From an uncultured Bacillota bacterium (lineage in GTDB: Bacteria; Sysuimicrobiota; Sysuimicrobiia; Sysuimicrobiales; Segetimicrobiaceae), in contig CAWDRG010000010.1 in NCBI GenBank assembly GCA_963804645.1, forward strand, positions 142,815-206,814: 64,000 nt of DNA, in the 5' to 3' direction. Below are positions 24,002-62,504 of this stretch, in pieces. The first letter of the stretch is position 1. Each line of letters begins with the position of its first letter. Under the pieces are notes generated by a model. The model was not told the DNA's origin. It made no database searches and saw only the letters and a list, made by a program, of their open reading frames with translations. The position numbers were made by a program, and so were the translations under genes.

Positions 24002-24088
24002 CCAGCCGATAAGAGCAACCCCCAGCGGCGCGGGGGACGCAAAGCCTACGGGGCCCGATCGTGGGTCAGCCGAGGCTGCCGAAGCTGG
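24002..24088 (+). ncRNA. GEMM-I (c-di-GMP-I class) riboswitch aptamer, A20 variant
   Basis: AAGAGCAACC..GGGACGCAAAGCC..GGGCCC..CAGCCGAGGCTGCCGAA; P1 CCAGC/GCTGG. Confidence 0.85.
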
Positions 24089-25130: not shown

Positions 25131-25223
25131 CGTTCCTTCCGAAAGAGCAAACCTGGGGCAACCTAGGGACGCAAAGTCACGGGACCCTCGACTGAGGGCC
25201 AGCCGGATTGCCGAGGAGGAACG
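25131..25223 (+). ncRNA. GEMM-I riboswitch, A20 variant, RBS-sequestering
   Basis: AAAGAGCAAACC..GCAA..GGGACGCAAAGTC..CAGCCGGATTGCCGA; P1 CGTTCCTTC pairs with GAGGAGGAACG, which contains the RBS. Confidence 0.85.
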
Positions 25224-37216: not shown

Positions 37217-37304
37217 CCAGTCGATAAGAGCACCCTCCGATCGCGCGGAGGACGCAAAGCCACCGGGGCCCAATAACGGGACTAGCCGGGGCTGCCGAAG
37301 CTGG
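37217..37304 (+). ncRNA. GEMM-I riboswitch, A20 variant
   Basis: TAAGAGCACCC..GGACGCAAAGCC..GGGCCC..TAGCCGGGGCTGCCGAAG; P1 CCAG/CTGG. Confidence 0.85.
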
Positions 37305-45646: not shown

Positions 45647-47631
45647 GTAGAGTAAGGGGTCAGCGCGCCGTGCGGCTCGTCCGTCAGGCAATTCAGCCCT
45701 ATCCACCTCCGTCGGTGGCCTGCAAGCCCATGCCGTGTTCCGGTCGCACACGTTTCTGATCCCTTCTCATCGAACCGGACGTGCGGAGTTGCCGCATCCG
45801 GCTCTCGGACTGAGTTCACACCAGGCTCACGAAATTACCACACGCTCGACGGCGTGAGCGGGTGCAGACCGCACTCCCGGTACAGGCGTCGGTTCGGAAA
45901 CTGTCGGGTGCCCCGGCCACTGATCTTATGCCGTCGCACAAGGAATCGTCGGAGCCGATCCGTCACGTACCGGTCAACTTGCCGGTACGTCTTGGTCACT
46001 GTCCCGTAGCTGAAGAAATGCTGCCAGCCTACGAGCAGCCGATTGAGGTGTGTAATCACCTCGTCCATCGGACTCTGATTGTGCGGACTCAGATAGCGGT
46101 GGACATCCTGTCGCAGTCGCCGAACGCCAGCCTTGGAAGGCGCTGCACCCAAGTACCGCCAGCCGTTCTTCCGACTGTACATCGGTCCAAACGTGTACCC
46201 CAGGAAGTCAAAGCTCTCTCTTCGCGCGTTTACCACCCGGGTCTTCTCCTCGTTCAGCTCCAGCTTGATCCGCCGCATGAGATCCCGGGTCGCCGTCAAA
46301 GCCTCTGCGGCCGTGCCGCGACACAAGATCACCAAGTCGTCGGCATAGACTTGCACGCGAGCCTGGAGCTGCTGCTCATACCGTTGCTGCCATGCCAGCA
46401 GAAACCGGCGCATGTATAGCAGAGCGAGCAGCGGACTGATCACTCCGCCTTGCGGGGTCCCGCGATGACGATGGTTCCCGCCACTTCGTCGTGGCCGTCC
46501 GCGGTCATCCGGCTCAACCACCGGCGCCTGCAACCAAGCCTTGATCAACGCCAGCACCTTGCCGTCGCTGATCCGCCGGGCTACACAGCGCATGAGCTCC
46601 GCGTGCGGGATCGTCTCGAAGTACTGTCGTAGGTCGGCGTCCACCACGTCCGTGTATCCCGCCTTGACGTCCGCATGCACCTGCTTGACTGCTCCCAGTG
46701 CCGACCGCTTGGGGCGGTAACCCCAAGCATTGTCTGGGAGATCGGCTTCGAAAATTGGACCGAGCACGAGAAGCGCCGCCGTCTGGATGACCCGCGTCCG
46801 GATCGTCGGTATACCTAACGGACGCAAACTCTTGCCGTCCGCTTTCAAAATCTCGACGCGCCGCACGGGGTCCGCGCGATAACTCCCCTCCTGAAGTTCT
46901 CGTTGGATCTCCCGCAAGAACGACTCCACCCCGGCCGCCTCGATCTGCTCGAAGGTCACCCCATCCACGCCCGGCGCGCCAGCGTTCGCCCGCGCCCGGT
47001 GGTACGCGTGTTCCAGGATGTCCCACCGAGAGAGCTTGTCGTACAGGGTGTAGAAGCGAAACTGTGGCTCCTTCTTCGCCTTGGCGTACAGCCGCCGCTG
47101 GAGGATCCGAATCCGTTCCGGAGTTGCTAGGCTCATCGCCAATCCCCGATCATCTCGCCTCCATTGGACAGCACCTCAGAACTGAGGCCCCTTCCCTCCG
47201 CCGGCTTTCGCCGGACTCATCGGTACTACGCGCCTCTCCGCCATCTCCGCCCAACAGGAGCCCAAAGCTCCTGGACCTCGTCCTGGCCGGAGACTTCCCG
47301 TGTTGCGCGGTCCTCGCTCTCCCTGCGTGCCGCCTCCACTACCCCGGCGAGACGCTCAGGGCTCCGTCGGGTTCATCTCCTGAGCGCAACGGCCTTCCCC
47401 GAATGAGAGGCGGGTCGGCTCTCGCATCCGTTATTTCGGGGCCTGCTTAGAGTCTCGCTACGCGCTGCAGCCCGCAGGGTTGCAGAGTCTGACTTATTCA
47501 GACTCCTTTCCGGAGGGCTTCACCATGATCCGTTGCCAGATCACCGTGCCTCCGTAGCTACCGAGGCGTCCCGACAACTCCTCGGGCGGGACCTTCCCCC
47601 GCTAGAGGACTCGCGCCTTTTCACGGCGCTC
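45647..47631 (-). mobile_element. group II intron
   Basis: Domain V GAGCCGGATGCGGCAACTCCGCACGTCCGGTTC, 3' end CTTACTCTAC, 5' end GAGCG; removal restores the IS terminal repeat. Confidence 0.9.
45835..47142 (-). CDS. ltrA: group II intron reverse transcriptase/maturase (no endonuclease domain)
   Basis: [38 protein letters not shown], domain X. Confidence 0.95.
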
Positions 47632-55691: not shown

Positions 55692-56973
55692 GGCGTCGTC
55701 AATAAACAAACTTTACAGAAGAACATTGGTTACGTATACTGCTGAGTGTGACCGTCCTGCAGGCACTCAGACAGAAGGTCGCCGCTCTGTGGCCGCATCT
55801 GGATGAACGCGCCCGCCGCTTGTTCGCGGCGAGCGAAGCGCGGCACCTCGGTCGTGGGGGCGTGACGCTGGTTAGTCGTGCCTGTGGCCTGTCCCGCGTT
55901 ACGATCACGAAAGGCTTGCATGAACTCGACGCGCCGGCCTTGCCGCCCGGTCGGGTGCGCCGCCCGGGCGGTGGGCGACCGAGCTTGGTGGCGCGCAATC
56001 CCGATCTGCCGCGGCGGTTGGAGGCGCTGGTCGAACCGCTCGCCCGAGGCGACCCGGAATCGCCGCTGCGGTGGACCAGCAAGAGTACGCGCATGTTGGC
56101 CGCCGAGCTCGCTGCGCAGCACCATCCGATCAGCCATGAGAAGGTCGCGCAGCTGCTGCGACAATTGAATTACAGCCTGCAGGCGAATCGGAAAATGGAG
56201 GAGGGGGCCGATCATCCGGATCGCGACGCGCAGTTTCAGTATATCAACGAGCAGGTCCGCCGCGCGCTCGCGGCGCACCGGCCGGTCATCTCGGTCGACA
56301 CGAAGAAGAAAGAGCTGCTGGGCAATTATCAGAATGGCGGGCGGCAGTGGCGGCCCGTGAAGGTGCCGGCCCGTGTGAAGGTGCATGATTTCCCGGGACC
56401 GAGCGTTCCGCGTGCCTATCCGTATGGGATTTACGACCTGGCGCGCAACACCGGGTTCGTCAATGTGGGCATCGATCACGATACCGCGCGTTTGCCGTGG
56501 CGTCGATCCGCGGGTGGTGGCGCGCTGAGGGCCGCCGGCTCTACCCGCAGGCCCAGCGCCTGCTGATCACGGCCGATGGCGGCGGCAGTAACGGCTACCG
56601 GCTGCGCCAGTGGAAACTCGAGTTGCAGCGCTTCGCCGACGCGGCGGGACTGACCATCATGGTGTGTCACTTTCCGCCCGGCACGAGCAAATGGAACAAG
56701 GTCGAGCACCGGCTGTTCTCATTCATCTCCACCAATTGGCGCGGCGAACCGCTGCGGGATTACGAGACCATCGTGCGGTTGATTGTGAACACGACCACGG
56801 CGAAAGGGCTCACGGTCCGGTGCCGATTGGACCGGCGCCGCTATCCGGCCGGTCGGAAGATCTCCGCCAAGGAGATGGCGGGCGTCAACCTCACACCGCA
56901 GTCATTTCATGGCGAGTGGAACTATCTCATACGGCCACATGCAAATCTGTAAAGTTTGTTTATTGACGAAGCC
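55692..56973 (+). mobile_element. ISAzo13-family element; transposase 55748-56952 frameshifted near 56487
   Basis: 28-bp IRs GGCGTCGTCAATAAACAAACTTTACAGA / TCTGTAAAGTTTGTTTATTGACGAAGCC, TAA TSD; GDPESPLRWTSKS, SVDTKKKE, ADGGGSNG, PPGTSKWNKVEHRLF. Confidence 0.92.
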
Positions 56974-57041
56974 TAAGTTCCCACGATGGCGGCGCTTCCA
57001 ACCGCTGCCGCCGTGGGGGCACCGCAGGCCCCGACCGTCGA

Positions 57042-57263
57042 TCAGATGTGCGTGAGGATCGGCCGGTGCGTGGTCATCATACACAGATTGTGGCCGGCGA
57101 CCGTGATGCAGTCAACGCACGTCACAGGGGCTTCCGGGGAAGATTGATAGCAGAACTCCGGCACCACCCTCCCGCGGCCGCCGCCCGCAGCGCGGCGCGC
57201 ATCGCCGCGGCGCCCAACGGCGGGGGACAGTGCGCGCTCGGCGGTGAACCCTGGCGTTCTCAT
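57042..57263 (-). CDS. putative RiPP precursor peptide (PGFTAE leader, Cys-rich core)
   Basis: AAAAGGAGG RBS; MRTPGFTAERAL...GRVVP|EFCYQSS...CVDC...LCMMTT; last gene of protease operon. Confidence 0.65.
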   Translation of the reverse strand: MRTPGFTAERALSPAVGRRGDARRAAGGGRGRVVPEFCYQSSPEAPVTCVDCITVAGHNLCMMTTHRPILTHI

Positions 57264-57288
57264 CGTGGGCCTCCTTTTGGATGAACCC

Positions 57289-58222
57289 CTAGCGATCGAT
57301 ATAGGGCGATAGCTTCGTAACCAGAAACGGAAATTCCTCGGTCACGTCCACGCGACAAAAGAACTTCTCGACGACATCGGTGCTGCGGTTCCGGTACGAG
57401 AACACCACGTCTACCACGTTGCGCGTCCCGCTCAGGGGTGAGGGGACGACGTCCACGCCGATCAGCGACGCGTTGCGTTCGAACGCTTCAGCGGCGTTGG
57501 CATAGATGGCCGGATAGCGGACCGCGAGATAATTGAGCGCACGGTGCTCGTCGGTCGCCCCGGCGTTATCGGCCATCAGCATGAGGCGATCGAACAACTC
57601 CTCTGCCGCCGGAGCGAACGCCTTGGCGGATGTCTTCTCGCGCCTGGGAATGGCCTTCATCAGCACATCACGATCGAAGGAATAGAGTTGATCGAAGGCC
57701 ACAATCGGGACCATGCAGCCCGTTGCACACTTCCGGCCCGGCCATGGGACCCCGAACGCCGATCAGGCAATCGAGATCCATGGGACTCGGCGTGGGGCGC
57801 AGCGCTTCCACCAGCAGACCGTAGTCCGCGAGCTCGCGCGGGACCACGATGTAGGTGTCGAGACCTTCAATCGTCATCACCCAGCACAGCTGGCGGACCA
57901 AATACCGATTCTCCGCCCGCGACAGCACCGCGTGAAGGGCTTGCCGATCCGTCAGCCCGCCTGTGTCCGTCCTGCCCGTGGCCTGGGCAAATTCTTTCTC
58001 CGTCGAAATTCTTGGAAAACGAGGCGCAATCCGGCCGAGCGCGTATACGTAGTGGGGTGCCGCGACATCCGCGCCGTTGGACCCTTGCACCGTGCCGCAC
58101 GTCGGACACGCCTGCGGGGCGAGCGGGCGTACCGATGACCCAGCAGACGTCGCTGGCACCGGGGCATCACTCCCGCCGATTGATACAGTCGCCTCTGACT
58201 CCTTCACTTCCGGGTGGTCCAT
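57289..58222 (-). CDS. cyanobactin PatA/PatG C-terminal DUF-like stand-alone protein (apparent +1 frameshift at ~57715)
   Basis: VYALGRI.PRFP..S.EKEFAQ, ENRYLVRQLCWV.TIEG, CNGL|MVPIV.FDQ.YSFD, ADNAGATDEHRALNYLAVRYP, EKFF.RVDVTEEFPFLVT. Confidence 0.85.
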
Positions 58223-58317
58223 CGCGATTTGCCTCCCCCATCGAAGTTAGCGAGGCGCTCTGCGAGCGCCGGGCAGTAGTCCCTGACCGCACAGGCTCCG
58301 CTGGCGTGGTCAATGCA

Positions 58318-58521
58318 CTATCGTGAGAAGCGCATCCACCGATTGAGCGTCGCGGCGCGCTTCTCGCAGCCGCCGCACGGCTTGATGCCCATCGCATACG
58401 TGACTCGTTTGATCGCGTCGCCCAGACCGATTTCCTCCTCGATGAGGAACCCCGGCAGCCGCACCCGATGTGGCTGTGGCGGCGGAGCGTCCCTCGGGGG
58501 CTTGGTGCCTTTCTTCCTCAT
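58318..58521 (-). CDS. small CxxC protein (67 aa) coupled to the protease
   Basis: ATGA overlap with protease stop; VRLPGF...EIGLGDAIKR.T...GIKPCGGC..R. Confidence 0.75.
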   Translation of the reverse strand: MRKKGTKPPRDAPPPQPHRVRLPGFLIEEEIGLGDAIKRVTYAMGIKPCGGCEKRAATLNRWMRFSR

Positions 58522-59429
58522 GACACTCTCCTTTCGTGCCGTGTCGCGGCCATCATGTGATACGCGCCCCATGCATCGAGCACCGGCGGCGCGATCGCTC
58601 GCCGCCTCGGCATCCGCGCCGCGGTCACGGCCAGTTTGATCTGTGCCGCACTCGCGGCGGGAAACTCGGACCAGAGCAAGGCGACGGCACCCGTCACGAA
58701 CGGCGCCGCCGCGCTTGTCCCGCTCACCGTCTGCTGCGTGCCGTTGGTCCCGAGGCTGGTAATGCGGTCCCCCGGCGCGCTCAGCCCCCTGCTGCCGATC
58801 GAGGCGCCCAGGTTCGATTCGCGGAGGATCCCGCCGTGCGCGTCGCAGGCGGCCACCGGGATGACCCACGCATGGCGGGTGATGGCGGAACTACCCACCA
58901 TGCCCTGATTCCCCGCCGCCGCCACGATCAGGGTGCCGTGATGGGCGGCGTAATCCAACGCCTGTTCCACCGTACACTCGTCCCTGGGCGATGGTTGCAG
59001 AAATCCGGCACTGAGGTTGATGACGCGCGCCCCCGCGTCGACGCTGTCGACAATGGCGCGCGCCAGCGTTTCGGGAGTCGCACCCGGCATTTGACCGTTC
59101 CCATTCAGGACTTCCGCAAAGATCGGGCGCAGCAACAGCGTGCACCCAGGACAGATCGCCGGCGCCACGGACTCTCGCCGGGCAGACAGGACGCCCGCCA
59201 CGAATGTCCCATGCCTACACGCGGCGCTGCCGGCCATGCGGCAGGCGCCCAGGGGTTCTCCCGGAAGCTCACGGATCGATGCGCCGGTCAGATCTGGGTG
59301 CGTGAGATCTACCGGCCCGTCGACGAGGGCCACCGTAATCTCGCGCCGACCCTCGCTGCGGCGCATCAAGGCGGGGAGTCGGACCACGTCCAACGCGGTC
59401 ATCTCGCCGGCACCAGGTCCTTTCGACAT
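58518..59429 (-). CDS. S8 subtilisin-like protease, cyanobactin PatA/PatG-like
   Basis: Triad VDGPVD / HGTFVAG / SGTSAAAP; AICPGC, AAAGNQG; no signal peptide; start at 59429 or 59402. Confidence 0.88.
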   Translation of the reverse strand: MSKGPGAGEMTALDVVRLPALMRRSEGRREITVALVDGPVDLTHPDLTGASIRELPGEPLGACRMAGSAACRHGTFVAGVLSARRESVAPAICPGCTLLLRPIFAEVLNGNGQMPGATPETLARAIVDSVDAGARVINLSAGFLQPSPRDECTVEQALDYAAHHGTLIVAAAGNQGMVGSSAITRHAWVIPVAACDAHGGILRESNLGASIGSRGLSAPGDRITSLGTNGTQQTVSGTSAAAPFVTGAVALLWSEFPAASAAQIKLAVTAARMPRRRAIAPPVLDAWGAYHMMAATRHERRVS

Positions 59430-59541
59430 CGATGCGTATCCACCGGATTTTGCGCCTGCGCCATTTCGACTCATCTTCGGCGCAGACCTCCACAATCGTG
59501 GGGGAGGAATCACGGGCCTCATTTGGAGGGCGTGATTTACA

Positions 59542-59589
59542 TGGCGGGCCCGGGGTGAATCGAACACCCGACCAGAGGTTTAGGAGACC
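59542..59589 (-). tRNA. partial tRNA-Arg(CCT): anticodon loop to CCA only (att-site remnant)
   Basis: Minus strand GGT-CTCCTAA-ACC-TCTGGTC-GGGTG-TTCGATT-CACCC-CGGGCCC-GCCA; no D-arm or 5' acceptor strand. Confidence 0.85.
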
Positions 59590-59855
59590 GATAGGCGCAG
59601 ACACACAAGTGCCCCAGTACAAATTATTGCTTTTTGACTCGAGAGCTCCCTTCGTAAACGACATCCGATCTTACACCCTCTTCACCCCCATATCTCCACC
59701 GTCGGCCGACAGGTAGGTACCCCTTCGCGGTCTGGCGCGCATCCTTAGCGAGGAGCCCGGTGATGCTGACAGCATTCTTGAGCTTGCGCGCACCAATCGG
59801 CCAGAGAAGATGGCCGGTTGGTGCGCGAATTCAATACTATGCCATCGGAATCAGT

Positions 59856-60350
59856 TCAACTAATGACAAAACCCAGGCCCACCGCCGTCTCCAGTGTGGC
59901 GCTCGCCGCGTGTAACGAAACGGACCAGGTCTGGTCCCCGACAATCCCGTCCACGGTAATTCCGCCCCAGGCCTGAAACGCTTCGACGCACGCCTTCGTA
60001 TGTGGCCCAAAGTTACCGTCGATCCCCTGCGGAGTCGTGATCCACTGCCCAGCGGCACCATTCGTGAGCAGTGTCTGCAGGCGGGTCACCACCGCTCCGG
60101 TTGATCCCACTTGAAGTGTCGGCATCGGGCCGCCATCCGGCAAGGCGGCCCAGGTCAGCGGCCCGACAATTCCATCAATCACCAGGCCCGCGCCTTGCTG
60201 GAATAGCTTCACCGCCGCCTCCACCTGCGCGCCGAATACCCCGTCAACCGTCAGCCCGAGGTCCGGCGTTCGGCGCAGCGCGCGCTCCAACCGCCTGACT
60301 GCGTCGCCCGTCGCACCCAAACTGATTGTGGGCTGTCCTGGATTAGCCAT
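59856..60350 (-). CDS. peptidoglycan-binding domain protein (two PG_binding_1-like repeats)
   Basis: G.TG.AV..L...L, DG.FG....A.V..FQ...G..DGIVG..TW twice; GAGGAG RBS. Confidence 0.88.
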   Translation of the reverse strand: MANPGQPTISLGATGDAVRRLERALRRTPDLGLTVDGVFGAQVEAAVKLFQQGAGLVIDGIVGPLTWAALPDGGPMPTLQVGSTGAVVTRLQTLLTNGAAGQWITTPQGIDGNFGPHTKACVEAFQAWGGITVDGIVGDQTWSVSLHAASATLETAVGLGFVIS

Positions 60351-60683
60351 GATCTCCTCGATGAGAGTTTTGTTTTGGCTTTTCGACTCAGCCTCAGTGT
60401 ACACTTGAGCGCCTTGCGTTGGGAGATTCCACCCCGGTTCGCCCAGTCCGTTCCGGACGGGTCCCAGAACAGCCGTGGGTCATCGGCTTCTAGGAGGGGG
60501 CGCAGAACGGCTCCTCATGGCGGGCCGGGCGGAAACAGGCCCAAAACCTGGACAGGAACTTTCGTGAAAGGGGATTCGAAGAATCAAGACGTAAATCCTA
60601 TTTGTCGCGTGCATCTTACGAAAAATCTATCCGGAAATTTCCTCGATGAGACCGTACTTCCTGCAGCGGCGACGGGGGCTGAC

Positions 60684-62504
60684 ATGGCAACGATAGAAGG
60701 CTACGCGTCCGCAGTATCGGCGGCGCCTGGAGACAACGTGAACTTTTGTGTCCGGTCCGACGCGGCCCACAGCGCCTTTACGTTGGAGATCTACCGTCGG
60801 GGAGCCTCCGATCAACTTGTCCAAACCTGCAGCGGGACCGCGTTTACGCCCGGCACCCAAGACGATGCGAGCCTTGCGCTCGCCGGCTGCCAGTGGCCGG
60901 CGGCGGCCGGGTGCCAGATCACCGTCCCTGCGAGTTGGGCGAGCGGATACTACGTCGGGAAGATCACGTCTGTCGACCAGATCGCGTGGGCCCCGTTCGT
61001 CGTGCGCGCGGCCGCGCCGGGCGTGAGATCCAAGATTCTGGTCAAGATGAACGATACCACCGCGCAAGCATACAATGCGTGGGGCGGGCGCAGTCTGTAC
61101 ACGACTGGTCCCTTCACTGGTCGGGTCTCGTTCGATCGGCCGTATGCGTCCCCAGACCCGGCCACGCTGAATAATCTGAACCTCTACGAACAGTACCAGC
61201 TCCCGTTTGCCCAGTGGGCGGACGCGCACGGGGTGGACGTCGAGTACTGCTCCGCGGTGGATCTGCATACGAACCCGGGGCTGCTCGAGAACTACCGGCT
61301 GCTGCTCAGCTTCGGGCACGATGAATACTGGTCGTGGGAGATGCGCGACCAGGTGGAAACATTCATCGCGAATGGTGGCAACGTGTGTTTCTTCTGTGGC
61401 AATACATGCTACTGGCAGGTCCGGTTTGACTTCAGCAGCGGCGGGCGCATCATGATGTGCTACAAGGAAACCGACATCGGCTTCCCGGATCCCGATCGAC
61501 AAGACCCGCAGCGGATCACCGTCCGCTGGGCGGAGGCGCCGCTCCTCCGGCCTGAGAACTCGATGACGGGCGTGGCCTACCGGAACGGTGCTGGCTGGTG
61601 GAACGATCCCATCGACCTCGCGAAGCGCGACCGGGGCTACACGGTGGCCAACTCGGCGCACTGGGTCTTCCAGGGTACCGGGCTGTCCGACGGAGATGAG
61701 TTTGGCAAAGGCACGAGCGTCGACACCACCATCCTCGGCTATGAAACCGATGCCGCGCTAATCACGCCGGGCAGCACGTCTCCCATGGTGCTCGGCACCG
61801 ACGGCACCCCGAAGAACTTCGTCGTCTTGGCGACGGCGGACCTCACCGACTGGGGTCCCGGCGGACAGGCGGGGCACGCGACGATGGGATTGTATCAGCG
61901 CAACGGGACCGCGTTCACCGGCGGGACGGTGAACTGGGCGGGCGGCCTCAGCTTGGACGCATCGTGGACACCTGTCGATCAAATCACCAGCAATCTCCTG
62001 CGCGGGCTCGCTGATGCGCGTGTACCGGGTCTTGGGATCGCCAACGCGGGCTTCGAACTGTGGGCGAACGGGCTCCCCGCCGGGTGGACGCTCGAGGGCG
62101 CGGGCAGCGTGTCGCCGGAGGCCGCCGCCCCGGATCCCAACTTCAGCGGCATCCACAATGACGGCGGCGGTCACTTCAGCTTGAAGGTCGACGGGACCGC
62201 AGGAGAAACGTGGATCAGCCAGTCTGGCATCCAGTGCGCGCTCGGGGACACGTACGGCATCGGCTGCTGGGCCAAGGCGTCCAACCCTGGGGCGACTATT
62301 CGACTGCAGACGACCGACACCTGGGTAGATTTTGTCACCGCCGCGCACACGGGGAGCGGAAACTGGGAGTACCTATTCGCGGTGGGCTCGGCGCAAGGAA
62401 CGAAAGGTCTCGTTCCAACCCGTGCGAAGATCCAGGTCGCGGCCGGAGTCCAGGCATGGTTTGACAGCCTCGTCGTAGTTGCGATTCCAGGCCATCCCAA
62501 ATGA
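60684..62504 (+). CDS. N,N-dimethylformamidase beta-subunit-like protein with C-terminal CBM-like domain
   Basis: IEGYAS..S, W.SGYY, T.QAYN.WGG.SLY, VSFDRPY, GHDEYWS, GNTCYWQVR, LGYETD; C-terminal NAGFE.W. Confidence 0.82.
   Translation: MATIEGYASAVSAAPGDNVNFCVRSDAAHSAFTLEIYRRGASDQLVQTCSGTAFTPGTQDDASLALAGCQWPAAAGCQITVPASWASGYYVGKITSVDQIAWAPFVVRAAAPGVRSKILVKMNDTTAQAYNAWGGRSLYTTGPFTGRVSFDRPYASPDPATLNNLNLYEQYQLPFAQWADAHGVDVEYCSAVDLHTNPGLLENYRLLLSFGHDEYWSWEMRDQVETFIANGGNVCFFCGNTCYWQVRFDFSSGGRIMMCYKETDIGFPDPDRQDPQRITVRWAEAPLLRPENSMTGVAYRNGAGWWNDPIDLAKRDRGYTVANSAHWVFQGTGLSDGDEFGKGTSVDTTILGYETDAALITPGSTSPMVLGTDGTPKNFVVLATADLTDWGPGGQAGHATMGLYQRNGTAFTGGTVNWAGGLSLDASWTPVDQITSNLLRGLADARVPGLGIANAGFELWANGLPAGWTLEGAGSVSPEAAAPDPNFSGIHNDGGGHFSLKVDGTAGETWISQSGIQCALGDTYGIGCWAKASNPGATIRLQTTDTWVDFVTAAHTGSGNWEYLFAVGSAQGTKGLVPTRAKIQVAAGVQAWFDSLVVVAIPGHPK

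Follow-up and report, generated by a model that had tools for sequence, protein, structure and literature searches.

The maturation of cyanobactins is the closest described parallel to the genes reported here. Precursors of the PatE type have an N-terminal G(L/V)E(A/P)S and a C-terminal AYDG-type recognition sequence, and PatA-like enzymes cut after the N-terminal one (PMC10885120). No function has been assigned to the C-terminal DUF of PatA and PatG since the structure was solved in 2014 (Mann et al. 2014, PMC4259220), and it is without one in a cyanobactin paper of 2025 as well (PMC12639078).

In PatA and PagA the S8 protease is fused to the C-terminal DUF, whereas in the cassette described here the two are encoded by separate genes, both in the window and in the related loci, usually with a gene for a 60-70-aa CxxC protein between them. 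Judged from sequence, the cassette is a widespread, unnamed and putative peptide-processing system related to the cyanobactin leader protease.

Organization of the locus

The initial annotation described four genes in the window (the whole stretch of DNA that was analysed, 64,000 nt): a stand-alone PatA-type protease, a small CxxC protein, a stand-alone DUF and a Cys-rich peptide. All four are found where it placed them, on the minus strand (Table 1).

Table 1. Features of the cassette and its immediate surroundings, in window positions
Feature	Position	Strand	Remarks
ISAzo13-family transposase	55748..56952	+	two overlapping frames; context only, outside the cassette
73-aa precursor-like peptide	57042..57263	-	homologues P0001, P0002; leader profile match
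Stand-alone cyanobactin-type DUF protein (PatG_D + PatG_C)	57289..58222	-	Pfam; two frames in the record
67-aa CxxC protein	58318..58521	-	ATG overlaps S8 stop codon (ATGA)
PatA-type S8 serine protease	58518..59429	-	Pfam Peptidase_S8 E 7.8e-28; ~294-303 aa
tRNA-Arg(CCT) 3' fragment	59542..59586	-	45 nt, anticodon loop to CCA; just upstream of the protease gene

The S8 protease

The S8 open reading frame spans 58518-59567. The start used in Table 1 is the ATG at 59429, as taken in the initial annotation, and an alternative ATG at 59402 aligns with the N-termini of relatives. The protein scores 98 bits against Pfam PF00082 (cut-off 21.8). D28, H64, N165 (oxyanion) and S230 are invariant in all 58 aligned proteins, the window copy included, and the triad is thus intact, as had been claimed. 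C54, C62, C84 and C87 are kept in at least 90% of the same alignment.

The top four PDB sequence matches are 4h6v, 3zxx, 3zxy and 4h6w (E 8e-32 to 4e-29), the last of which is deposited as "N-terminal cyanobactin protease". Ordinary subtilisins rank below these among the PDB sequences, at E 1e-21 or weaker. PatA/PagA are the nearest relatives among solved structures (E about 1e-31), which bears out the PatA-type assignment. The protein stays below the cut-off of NCBIfam TIGR03895, the PatA/PatG family cyanobactin maturation protease (97.2 bits vs 421), and it covers only positions 1-179 of this 606-position model of a fused S8 and DUF. The best reading of the gene is a split-off PatA-type protease, predicted to be cytoplasmic.

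The stand-alone DUF

The DUF gene lies on the minus strand as annotated, but the annotation did not notice that the record has it frameshifted. PatG_D (PF18047, E 1.3e-25, 90.5 bits, cut-off 27) and PatG_C (PF18065, E 8.5e-35, 119.7 bits, cut-off 25.9) are split over two frames, 57668-58222 and 57289-57714. The break is one extra C at 57715, which is missing in all ten aligned relatives and also in a 1,902-nt contig of the public run X1, which differs from the window by seven other letters. Since the frame break is absent from this independent contig, the window cassette is probably intact in nature. Split DUF open reading frames are also found in four relatives, and a long-read assembly error is suspected, with only one record title naming MinION. 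The X1 contig, near-identical to the window, comes from a peat metagenome.

The fold was predicted for an intact DUF homologue, that of locus L016 (pLDDT 79.6). At E <= 0.001 this model matches a single PDB entry, 4uvq, the PatG DUF (Foldseek E 2.7e-14; TM 0.64/0.75 over 271 columns, 21% identity). Thus both Pfam domains exceed their gathering scores, and the fold, taken from this homologue, is that of 4uvq. A single-sequence phmmer search of PDB sequences with the intact DUF missed PatG-DUF and brought up just one spurious match, to a repeat protein (E 0.0012), and neither DUF open reading frame matches TIGR03895 at E <= 0.01. The link to PatG-DUF is therefore one of Pfam and fold, not of single-sequence search. 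The stand-alone DUFs are 54-80% identical to one another across phyla, with 32 invariant columns and a mean column identity of 58%. They differ from PatG-DUF by a disordered N-terminal addition of ~55 residues, which has a CxxC (C40-x-x-C43).

The small CxxC protein

The 67-aa protein had been called coupled to the protease, in keeping with the overlap of its start and the S8 stop. It displays the motifs R-L-P-G-F, G-L-G-D and P-C-G-G-C. Ten residues are invariant in 50 sequences: L21, P22, F24, G31, G33, D34, C48, C51, R54 and N59. In all related loci that have it, the gene is placed between S8 and DUF, except in L077, where it follows the DUF gene. An AF2 model (pLDDT 78.8) displays a strand-helix-helix-strand order, with the CxxC opening helix 2. 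The protein belongs to no Pfam or NCBIfam family, and none of the 50 members has a meaningful Pfam E-value. An ESM Atlas search finds solely "hypothetical protein" clusters. Comparison of the model with the PDB gives a best Foldseek E of 5.9 and a best VIA-align wide Z of 2.3. The L-P-G-F motif is common to this protein and the leaders of the peptides.

The window peptide and the leader family

The peptide is composed of the leader MRTPGFTAERAL (M-R-T-P-G-F-T-A-E), a Gly/Arg-rich linker, RVVPE and a core with four Cys. A strong ribosome binding site, AGGAGG, is found 7 nt before its ATG. Two homologues, P0001 (96% identical, with V-V-P-Q) and P0002 (65%), both keep the frame and the four Cys, so the gene stands as first described. 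A leader profile finds the window peptide as its sole match in the 5.3-Mb genome (E 4.1e-8). The homologues, the ribosome binding site and the profile match argue against a chance open reading frame in G+C-rich DNA, and this reading was rejected. A 198-nt metatranscriptome contig spans 57093-57290, which is weak evidence, as DNA can occur in such libraries.

Across related loci the leader has the consensus M-x-x-PGFTAE-x-SL...Y...V-x-P-Q over ~35-40 aa, ahead of variable cores; the Tyr sits 15 residues past the Pro. The window leader departs from it by Ala for Ser at +7 and Arg for Tyr at +15, and its boundary residue is Glu where the consensus has Gln. A tblastn search with the window peptide matched in only one of 80 loci. 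The cores are too variable for such a search, and the family was recovered by motif and profile. A strict filter yields 175 leader open reading frames in 71 of 80 loci, 1-10 in each; three evident false positives were dropped, leaving 172. The leader profile expands the family to 6,483 clusters at 50% identity. No family name was obtained from NCBIfam with 131 leaders or from Pfam with 37 full-length precursors, where only chance-level single matches appear (E >= 0.019).

The motif [V/I]-x-P-[Q/A/S] is found at a median of 32 residues past the leader Pro in 141 of the 172 open reading frames, and in 136 of 150 independent representatives. The regular expression demands the Pro, and its 100% frequency is by construction. 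The initial annotation had the peptide released after VVP. Given the consensus V-x-P-Q (V-V-P-E in the window), the cut would more likely follow the residue after the Pro.

Cysteine makes up 12.8% of the cores and 0.8% of the leaders. Past residue 30, the number of Cys is even and non-zero in 167 of 175 open reading frames, odd in six and zero in two; among the 150 independent representatives, 120 are even, 25 odd and five zero. Of the two products first proposed, disulfide- or metal-bound, the even numbers favor paired cysteines, which would be the disulfide form. Cys spacing in the core is highly variable between paralogs, some cores extend to as much as 283 and 425 aa, and a conserved C-terminal recognition motif is absent from the 172 precursors.

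Distribution and comparison with described systems

Eighty related loci from many phyla were fetched via the DUF; these relatives are not independent, and p-values computed for the boundary motif and the Cys counts overstate their significance. S8 is found in 72, the CxxC protein in 61 (by tblastn) and the DUF in all 80 (tblastn finds PatG_D in 79), together with 1-10 small open reading frames. The leader open reading frames lie downstream on the DUF strand in 152 of 172 cases, and 58 of the 80 loci have one whose start is no more than 400 nt from the DUF stop. Thus precursors with a conserved leader and a variable core adjoin the putative processing enzymes, as in loci for RiPPs.

In an all-against-all clustering of 2,393 open reading frames from the 80 loci (6-kb flanks), only S8 and DUF recur. 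Any further family is present in at most 7 of 80 loci, and clusters 4-7, each of them found in 4 to 7 loci, are the precursors themselves, judged by representative open reading frames. The cassette is minimal, as first proposed: S8, DUF, the small CxxC protein and leader open reading frames are all that recurs.

Enrichment of the leader near the protease and DUF, the prediction by which the initial annotation asked to be judged, holds in the 80 loci and also in 245 genomes that were not chosen for the cassette. Two of the latter are positive with the leader profile: one of 94 from the phylum of the window (the window genome itself) and one of 151 from an acidobacterial order. Their three leader matches all adjoin a gene of this DUF type. 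Two other genomes of the acidobacterial order have PatG_C, with different DUF types. One (G235) has a 667-aa S8-DUF fusion and lacks the PGFTAE leader; the other has S8 followed by a separate DUF open reading frame of a different sequence type, which we take to be the classical cyanobactin type.

The likeness to PatA/PagA extends beyond S8, to the same DUF (PatG_D, PatG_C; fold 4uvq), to proteins that are apparently cytoplasmic and to a cluster without a transporter; the boundary V-x-P-Q is also shaped like the PatA site G(L/V)E(A/P)S as given in PMC10885120. There are differences. The initial annotation noted split domains and missing partners, and both points are upheld: the Pfam scan of the window and the 6-kb flanks of the 80 loci show no PatG-type second protease or macrocyclase, no YcaO-type heterocyclase and no prenyltransferase that recurs. 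The precursors are not of the PatE type; they have another leader, long Cys-rich cores and no C-terminal recognition sequence, and V-x-P-Q only resembles the N-terminal site. The spread over many phyla is a further difference.

Loci for class II bacteriocins and lanthipeptides are similar in that several precursor genes share one leader ahead of divergent cores; a locus of the cassette has 1-10 such paralogs. However, the cassette has no double-glycine motif, its protease is S8, and neither a C39-peptidase ABC transporter nor an immunity gene is recurrent in its loci. In the literature searched, which leaves out most subscription journals, no paper was found on the peptide or the CxxC protein; with no family name either, this agrees with the view of the system as undescribed. 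One candidate paper, PMC11118758, proved unrelated in content.

Genomic context

The tRNA fragment corresponds to the last 45 nt of the tRNA-Arg(CCT) genes of contig C9, with one base different in the anticodon-arm stretch. Its 28-nt 3' end is identical to C9:7516-7543 and C9:5494-5521 and has one mismatch to C9:6376-6403; ARAGORN places tRNA-Arg(CCT) at C9 6376-6448 and 7516-7591. Contigs of other organisms align over these 45 nt only and then diverge. The fragment is a possible att-type remnant.

The ISAzo13 transposase lies directly downstream of the peptide gene. Its two frames match Pfam DDE_Tnp_ISAZ013 (E 4e-63, 7e-63) and cover positions 2-238 and 242-387 of the 387 in NCBIfam transpos_ISAzo13. 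Several other IS elements are within 15 kb of the cassette. Pfam matches of neighboring genes in the window are to transposases, a glycosyltransferase, a PG-binding protein and a DMFA2_C protein, and the mobile-element matches past 30 kb are confined to rve, IS110-type, DDE and ISAzo13 transposases plus the reverse transcriptase of a group II intron. G+C in 1-kb bins is 0.61-0.73 before 35 kb, mostly 0.66 or more, and 0.59-0.67 past it, except for three bins at 0.67-0.72. The window end is the contig end, and any island border beyond it lies outside the data.

DUF and leader together are found in one of the 94 genomes of the phylum and in none of the 93 others, nor in any of the six of the same genus. 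Its closest relatives, with 87% identity over PatG_C, are acidobacterial. This rarity, the acidobacterial relatives and the flanking tRNA fragment and IS elements indicate that the window cassette was acquired horizontally into a mobile-element-rich region. The initial annotation went further and had it on a tRNA-integrated island. The 45-nt repeat of a tRNA 3' end, the run of IS elements, the lower G+C and the absence from 93 relatives agree with an island. However, neither ARAGORN nor Rfam finds an intact tRNA in the window, and no phage-type integrase family is matched by Pfam among the 30 non-overlapping open reading frames of at least 110 aa kept past 30 kb.

Proposed mechanism and alternatives

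With moderate confidence we favor a leader-dependent "split PatA" cassette that trims the leaders from disulfide-paired linear peptides, the window copy being a horizontal acquisition. The substrates of S8, the CxxC protein and the DUF would be the small proteins whose genes follow directly. S8 would most probably remove the leader at or next to V-x-P-Q and so release a linear core of variable sequence, with its cysteines paired as disulfides. The DUF and the CxxC protein may play accessory parts, by holding on to substrate or protease or by assisting thiol chemistry. The genes with their homologies and co-occurrence are observed, as are the motifs of leader and boundary and the even numbers of Cys; from these we infer the cleavage and its exact site, the disulfides and the roles of DUF and CxxC protein. 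PatG-DUF did not bind the precursor PatE in NMR titrations (PMC4259220), and a leader-binding role for the DUF here would be without precedent in PatG-DUF. A complex prediction with S8, DUF and the first 51 precursor residues of L016 gave a median of 0.66, against 0.00 for unrelated partners and 0.62 for a control with the DUF replaced. Counting against this reading is that no export signal is seen by eye in the three proteins or the peptide and that no conserved transporter is nearby, so that no site for disulfide formation is evident.

These same points bear on an unlikely alternative, a sorting or pro-protein system in which the PGFTAE leader is the targeting or pro-sequence of Cys-rich secreted proteins, S8 is their pro-peptidase, export is encoded elsewhere and no further modification takes place. 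Cargoes vary greatly in length, some having 199-425 aa and one pentapeptide-like repeats, and cores of up to 425 aa are more in line with a pro-protein than with a classical RiPP; folding in an oxidising compartment would agree with the even Cys numbers, and no modifying enzyme is conserved in the neighborhood. However, genes for membrane or transport proteins do not recur around the cassette in the 80 loci, S8, DUF, CxxC protein and leader peptide have no hydrophobic N-terminal stretch as judged by eye, and the nearest homologs of S8 and DUF are RiPP enzymes. It is similarly improbable that the window copy is a decaying remnant of a horizontally acquired cassette. The extra base, V-V-P-E in place of V-V-P-Q, the loss of the conserved Tyr and the adjacent ISAzo13 and other IS elements would fit decay. 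Against it, the X1 contig lacks the extra base, split frames also occur in four relatives, where a long-read assembly error is suspected, the S8 triad and the CxxC protein are intact, and the peptide frame is open and covered by an RNA-library contig.

Cysteines might instead serve metal handling, the core Cys and CxxC motifs binding metal in metallothionein- or metallophore-like products without disulfides; we regard this as quite improbable. CxxC is present in all three proteins (S8 C84-x-x-C87, small protein C48-x-x-C51, DUF C40-x-x-C43), and the G-I-K-P-C-G-G-C of the small protein resembles the metal-binding motif G-M-x-C-x-x-C. However, core Cys spacing varies strongly between paralogs, and even numbers fit pairs, though the Cys of CxxC metal sites pair too; the lack of a PDB match for the predicted fold of the small protein also speaks against metal, if not decisively. 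The least probable is head-to-tail macrocyclisation, with the lone S8 acting like PatG to give cyclic disulfide-rich peptides. S8 is homologous to cyanobactin subtilases, some of which are transamidases (PMC10885120). However, the 172 precursors have no conserved C-terminal recognition motif, none of the best 60 PDB matches of S8 is named a macrocyclase domain, the top four being cyanobactin protease entries, and S8 at ~290 aa has about the length of solved A-type protease domains (282-307 residues). This length would leave no room for the PatG macrocyclase insertion.

Wider significance

The split-PatA reading can be extended, tentatively and with clear doubt, to the suggestion that the cassette is the minimal form of a new and very large class of ribosomal peptides. 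"Split PatA" would then mature thousands of hypervariable, disulfide-knotted linear peptides in many phyla, the DUF and CxxC protein would represent the functional core of the cyanobactin DUF (leader or protease docking, oxidative folding), and new peptide genes would be swapped in by recombination at the conserved DUF 3' end. In this cassette the DUF stands alone, is very strongly conserved and comes with only two partners and an evident family of substrates, so that its role could be tested with one peptide and three small proteins. Should the products prove to be stable peptides rich in disulfides, soil and freshwater bacteria would offer a large reservoir of natural scaffolds that is still untapped. 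The window copy itself is of smaller value, being a single horizontally acquired cassette with one peptide gene. In relatives that have extra peptide genes, these are preceded by remnants of the conserved DUF 3' end.

The four-gene cassette

From 59429 down to 57042 the minus strand carries four genes arranged head to tail, which encode an S8 protease, a 67-aa CxxC protein, a cyanobactin-type domain of unknown function (DUF) and a 73-aa peptide. The cassette described in the initial annotation is real, with two corrections: the DUF frame is broken, and the tRNA is a fragment. The longest S8 ORF is 58518-59567; the initial annotation used the ATG at 59429, and an alternative ATG at 59402 matches the start position of relatives in the alignment. 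PatG_D (E 1.3e-25) is found in ORF 57668-58222 and PatG_C (E 8.5e-35) in ORF 57289-57714. The peptide displays the leader M-R-T-P-G-F-T-A-E-R-A-L, a Gly/Arg-rich stretch, V-V-P-E and then four Cys, and its gene is the only peptide gene in the window. A metatranscriptome contig of 198 nt spans 57093-57290, approximately the peptide gene; it is a weak hint of transcription, since DNA can occur in RNA libraries.

Locations of cassette genes and mobile elements in the window, with examples of DUF 3′-end remnants from related loci (L numbers)
Feature	Location	Strand	Remarks
S8 protease	58518-59429	-	Pfam Peptidase_S8, E 7.8e-28
67-aa CxxC protein	58318-58521	-	ATG overlaps protease stop codon (ATGA)
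Cyanobactin-type DUF	57289-58222	-	Pfam PatG_D and PatG_C, in two ORFs
73-aa peptide ORF	57042-57263	-	AGGAGG 7 nt upstream
ISAzo13 transposase	55748-56952	+	directly after peptide gene
rve-type transposase	between 42.6 and 57 kb		Pfam/NCBIfam/Rfam scans
Two IS110-type transposases	between 42.6 and 57 kb		flank group II intron
DDE_Tnp_1 transposase	between 42.6 and 57 kb
Group II intron	45838-47604	-	D1-D4 RNA 47460-47604 (86 bits); reverse transcriptase/maturase ORF 45838-47142
DUF 3′-end remnants	L002:8087-8167; L003:7462-7542; L050:7023-7316; L080:6463-6822

Cassette proteins

The best PDB sequence matches of the S8 protease are 4h6v, 3zxx, 3zxy and 4h6w (E 8e-32 to 4e-29; next 5e-21), of which 4h6w is deposited as 'N-terminal cyanobactin protease'. 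The score against NCBIfam TIGR03895 is 97 bits, below the cut-off of 421. All 58 aligned sequences keep the Asp, His and Ser residues and the oxyanion Asn, and C54, C62 and both Cys of C84-x-x-C87 are each at least 90% conserved.

In an alignment of 60 intact DUF proteins, column identity averages 58% and 32 columns are invariant; the N-terminal part carries a CxxC (C40, C43, at least 90%), and C114 and C167 are invariant. The AF2 model of the DUF from L016, an intact homologue locus, has a pLDDT of 79.6 with residues 1-54 disordered, and its sole PDB fold match at E <= 0.001 is the PatG DUF, 4uvq (E 2.7e-14, TM 0.64/0.75, 21% identity).

The CxxC protein (50 sequences) has invariant L-P-x-F, G-x-G-D, C-x-x-C, R and N, and is modeled by AF2 as strand-helix-helix-strand (pLDDT 78.8), with the CxxC at the beginning of helix 2. 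An hhalign comparison pairs its R-V-R-L-P-G-F-x-x-E-E with M-P-G-F-T-A-E of the leader over 15 columns (probability 58.5%, E 9.6e-5), which suggests that the two may share a docking motif. A conserved CxxC is present in all three proteins (S8 C84-x-x-C87, DUF C40-x-x-C43, small protein C48-x-x-C51; alignments A2, A3, A5). A Segetibacter record labels both the CxxC protein and the peptide 'hypothetical protein', and a Pseudanabaena DUF carries either that label or 'cyanobactin maturation protease PatG family protein', depending on the source.

Related loci in other genomes

A one-genome-per-species scan gave 296 pattern matches, 140 of which encode a PatG_C relative; the best 80 of these (65-87% identity) were kept with 6-kb flanks. 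They belong to Acidobacteriota, Planctomycetota, several proteobacterial classes, Cyanobacteriota, Chloroflexota, Actinomycetota, Verrucomicrobiota, Nitrospirota and others. In tblastn with the window proteins, S8 is matched in 72/80 loci, the CxxC protein in 61, PatG_D in 79 and the window peptide in one, several misses falling at contig ends. Thirteen loci have S8 and DUF without a CxxC protein match (L035, L039, L045, L050, L053, L055, L056, L057, L064, L065, L070, L071 and L079); going by record titles, several are cyanobacterial, among them L035, L045, L050, L053, L055, L057 and L065. In the cyanobacterial ones, S8 directly adjoins the DUF, and PGFTAE-type peptides are still present.

When the 2,393 ORFs from these loci that reach 90 aa are clustered all against all, two real genes recur, the DUF in 80 loci and S8 in 72, and no others. 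Two more clusters, covering 69 and 27 loci, have representatives whose coordinates place them over these two genes on the opposite strand or in another frame. The remaining clusters cover at most 7 loci, and clusters 4-7 (4 to 7 loci each) are precursor ORFs, judged by representatives. No transporter, YcaO, prenyltransferase, radical-SAM or oxidoreductase family is recurrent among these ORFs within the 6-kb flanks.

Leader peptides

Small ORFs downstream of the DUF have a common N-terminal leader. A strict leader filter kept 175 of 190 candidates, spread over 71/80 loci with 1-10 each; at least eight of the rejects look genuine by eye, and dropping three evident false positives left 172. Most (152/172) are downstream on the DUF strand, with 15 upstream and 5 on the opposite strand, and 58/80 loci have a leader ORF whose start is no more than 400 nt from the DUF stop. 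The consensus of 141 aligned leaders is M-x-x-P-G-F-T-A-E-x-S-L, a Tyr 15 residues past the Pro, then V-x-P-Q; neither the leader Pro nor the Ala of T-A-E varies, and the Phe is at least 90% conserved. A [V/I]-x-P-[Q/A/S] motif, whose Pro was required by the search pattern, is found in 141/172 ORFs and ends a median of 32 residues past the leader Pro.

Cores have a median length of 44 aa and are rich in Cys (12.8% vs 0.8% in the leader). Cys counts after residue 30 are even and non-zero in 167/175 peptides, odd in 6 and zero in 2; over whole peptides (n=172) they are even in 147, odd in 24 and zero in 1. Some 'cores' are long, up to 425 aa.

The leader profile was also searched in genomes not selected for the cassette, 94 of the window's phylum and 151 of an acidobacterial order. 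It matches one genome in each set: the window's own, and an acidobacterial genome of 6.7 Mb (G094) in which both matches lie within 2.5 kb of a DUF gene. PatG_C is found in 3/151 genomes of the acidobacterial order, and the two without a leader match have other DUF types. One encodes a 667-aa S8-DUF fusion, and the other has an S8 with a separate DUF ORF after it, of a different sequence type that we take to be the classical cyanobactin type. In these genomes the leader thus goes with this stand-alone DUF subtype. A leader not enriched near such proteases would have refuted the initial annotation; this was not observed, all leader matches in the 245 genomes being beside a DUF.

Against 1.84 billion cluster representatives the profile matches 6,483 proteins at E <= 0.001, of which 214 reach E <= 1e-10. 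Among the best 150 of the 6,483, almost all matches are at the N-terminus, P-G-F-x-A is present in 148 and the boundary motif in 136; 120 have an even number of Cys, 25 an odd number and 5 none.

Possible function and its alternatives

Comparative evidence (homology, co-occurrence and leader linkage) supports the initial reading of the cassette as what appears to be an undescribed minimal cyanobactin-like peptide-processing system. A literature search that covered only a minority of subscription journals found no paper describing a stand-alone DUF cassette or a PGFTAE leader. Going beyond gene content, motifs and co-occurrence, we infer that the S8 protease would remove the leader, most likely at or beside V-x-P-Q, to release a linear core whose cysteines would pair, and that the DUF and CxxC protein may be accessory. 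The V-x-P-Q boundary resembles a PatA-like site; PatA-like enzymes cleave their substrates after G(L/V)E(A/P)S, and PatG-like enzymes cleave before AYDG and cyclise (PMC10885120). In the 172 precursors no conserved C-terminal core motif was found, and PatG-like cyclisation is highly improbable. Metal-binding products are very unlikely, and a pro-protein or sorting system is an unlikely reading; no export signal or transporter was seen for the cassette. According to PMC4259220, the PatG DUF has a novel fold, NMR showed no binding to PatE and the role of the domain is open; a 2025 paper (PMC12639078) still refers to it as a domain of unknown function.

Another alternative is that the window's genome carries a decaying copy. 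The two DUF ORFs are one gene: both domains are in one frame in relatives, and the window has an extra C (CTG-C-ATG) at 57715, absent from 10/10 aligned relatives. Contigs from four public runs were compared with window 57000-59600. One contig, from run X1 (1,902 nt, depth 5), covers 57000-58779 with 7 other letters different, and its only gap is the missing base at 57715; a nearly identical DNA in which the DUF gene is intact therefore exists. Split DUF ORFs are also found in four relatives, where long-read assembly error is suspected, MinION being named for only one record. Because of the intact X1 contig and these split ORFs we lean, on one contig, towards assembly error or strain variation in the window, and decay is unlikely. 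The nearby ISAzo13 transposase is also broken, with model positions 2-238 in one frame and 242-387 in another, overlapping one; this second frame break, less than 2 kb from that of the DUF, fits assembly indel errors or real decay.

Possible exchange of peptide genes

Sixteen of the 80 loci contain 19 extra PatG_C-like pieces; 17 are partial and come from the 3′ end, the other two are complete second copies, and in 12/19 a leader ORF follows within 400 nt. In addition, public-run contigs coincide over the DUF 3′ end (57328-57390) and then diverge. Both observations suggest that peptide cassettes may be swapped by recombination at the conserved DUF 3′ end. In the window no DUF 3′-end remnant was found.

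Genomic setting

PatG_C is found in 1/94 genomes of the window's phylum, this one, as is the leader; six same-genus genomes have neither. The nearest DUF relatives are acidobacterial (87% identity over PatG_C). It is well supported that the cassette was acquired horizontally into a mobile-element-rich region. In 1-kb bins, G+C past 35 kb is 0.59-0.67, except for three bins reaching 0.67-0.72, and before 35 kb it is 0.61-0.73, mostly at least 0.66.

The more specific proposal of a 'tRNA-integrated island' is only partly supported. In its favor are the run of insertion sequences, the lower G+C, the absence from relatives and a tRNA 3′ fragment at 59542-59586(-), which corresponds to the 45 nt from anticodon loop to CCA at the 3′ end of tRNA-Arg(CCT), differing at one base in the anticodon-arm stretch. 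However, ARAGORN and Rfam detected no tRNA in the window, and Pfam matches none of the 30 retained non-overlapping ORFs past 30 kb, each 110 aa or longer, to a phage-type integrase family. The last 28 nt of the fragment are identical to one tRNA-Arg(CCT) gene on C9, another contig of this genome, where two such genes and a third 3′ fragment are in tandem within 2.1 kb (C9:5494-7591). The 3′ ends of these copies are identical to the window fragment or have one mismatch, and the array may be a repeatedly used integration site.

Beyond the tRNA fragment, at 59856-62504, two divergently arranged ORFs encode a protein of 182 aa containing two PG_binding_1 domains and one of 709 aa with a DMFA2_C (N,N-dimethylformamidase beta-like) domain. 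Three c-di-GMP-I-type riboswitch aptamers (+), at 24004-24083, 25137-25216 and 37219-37299, are above Rfam gathering scores.
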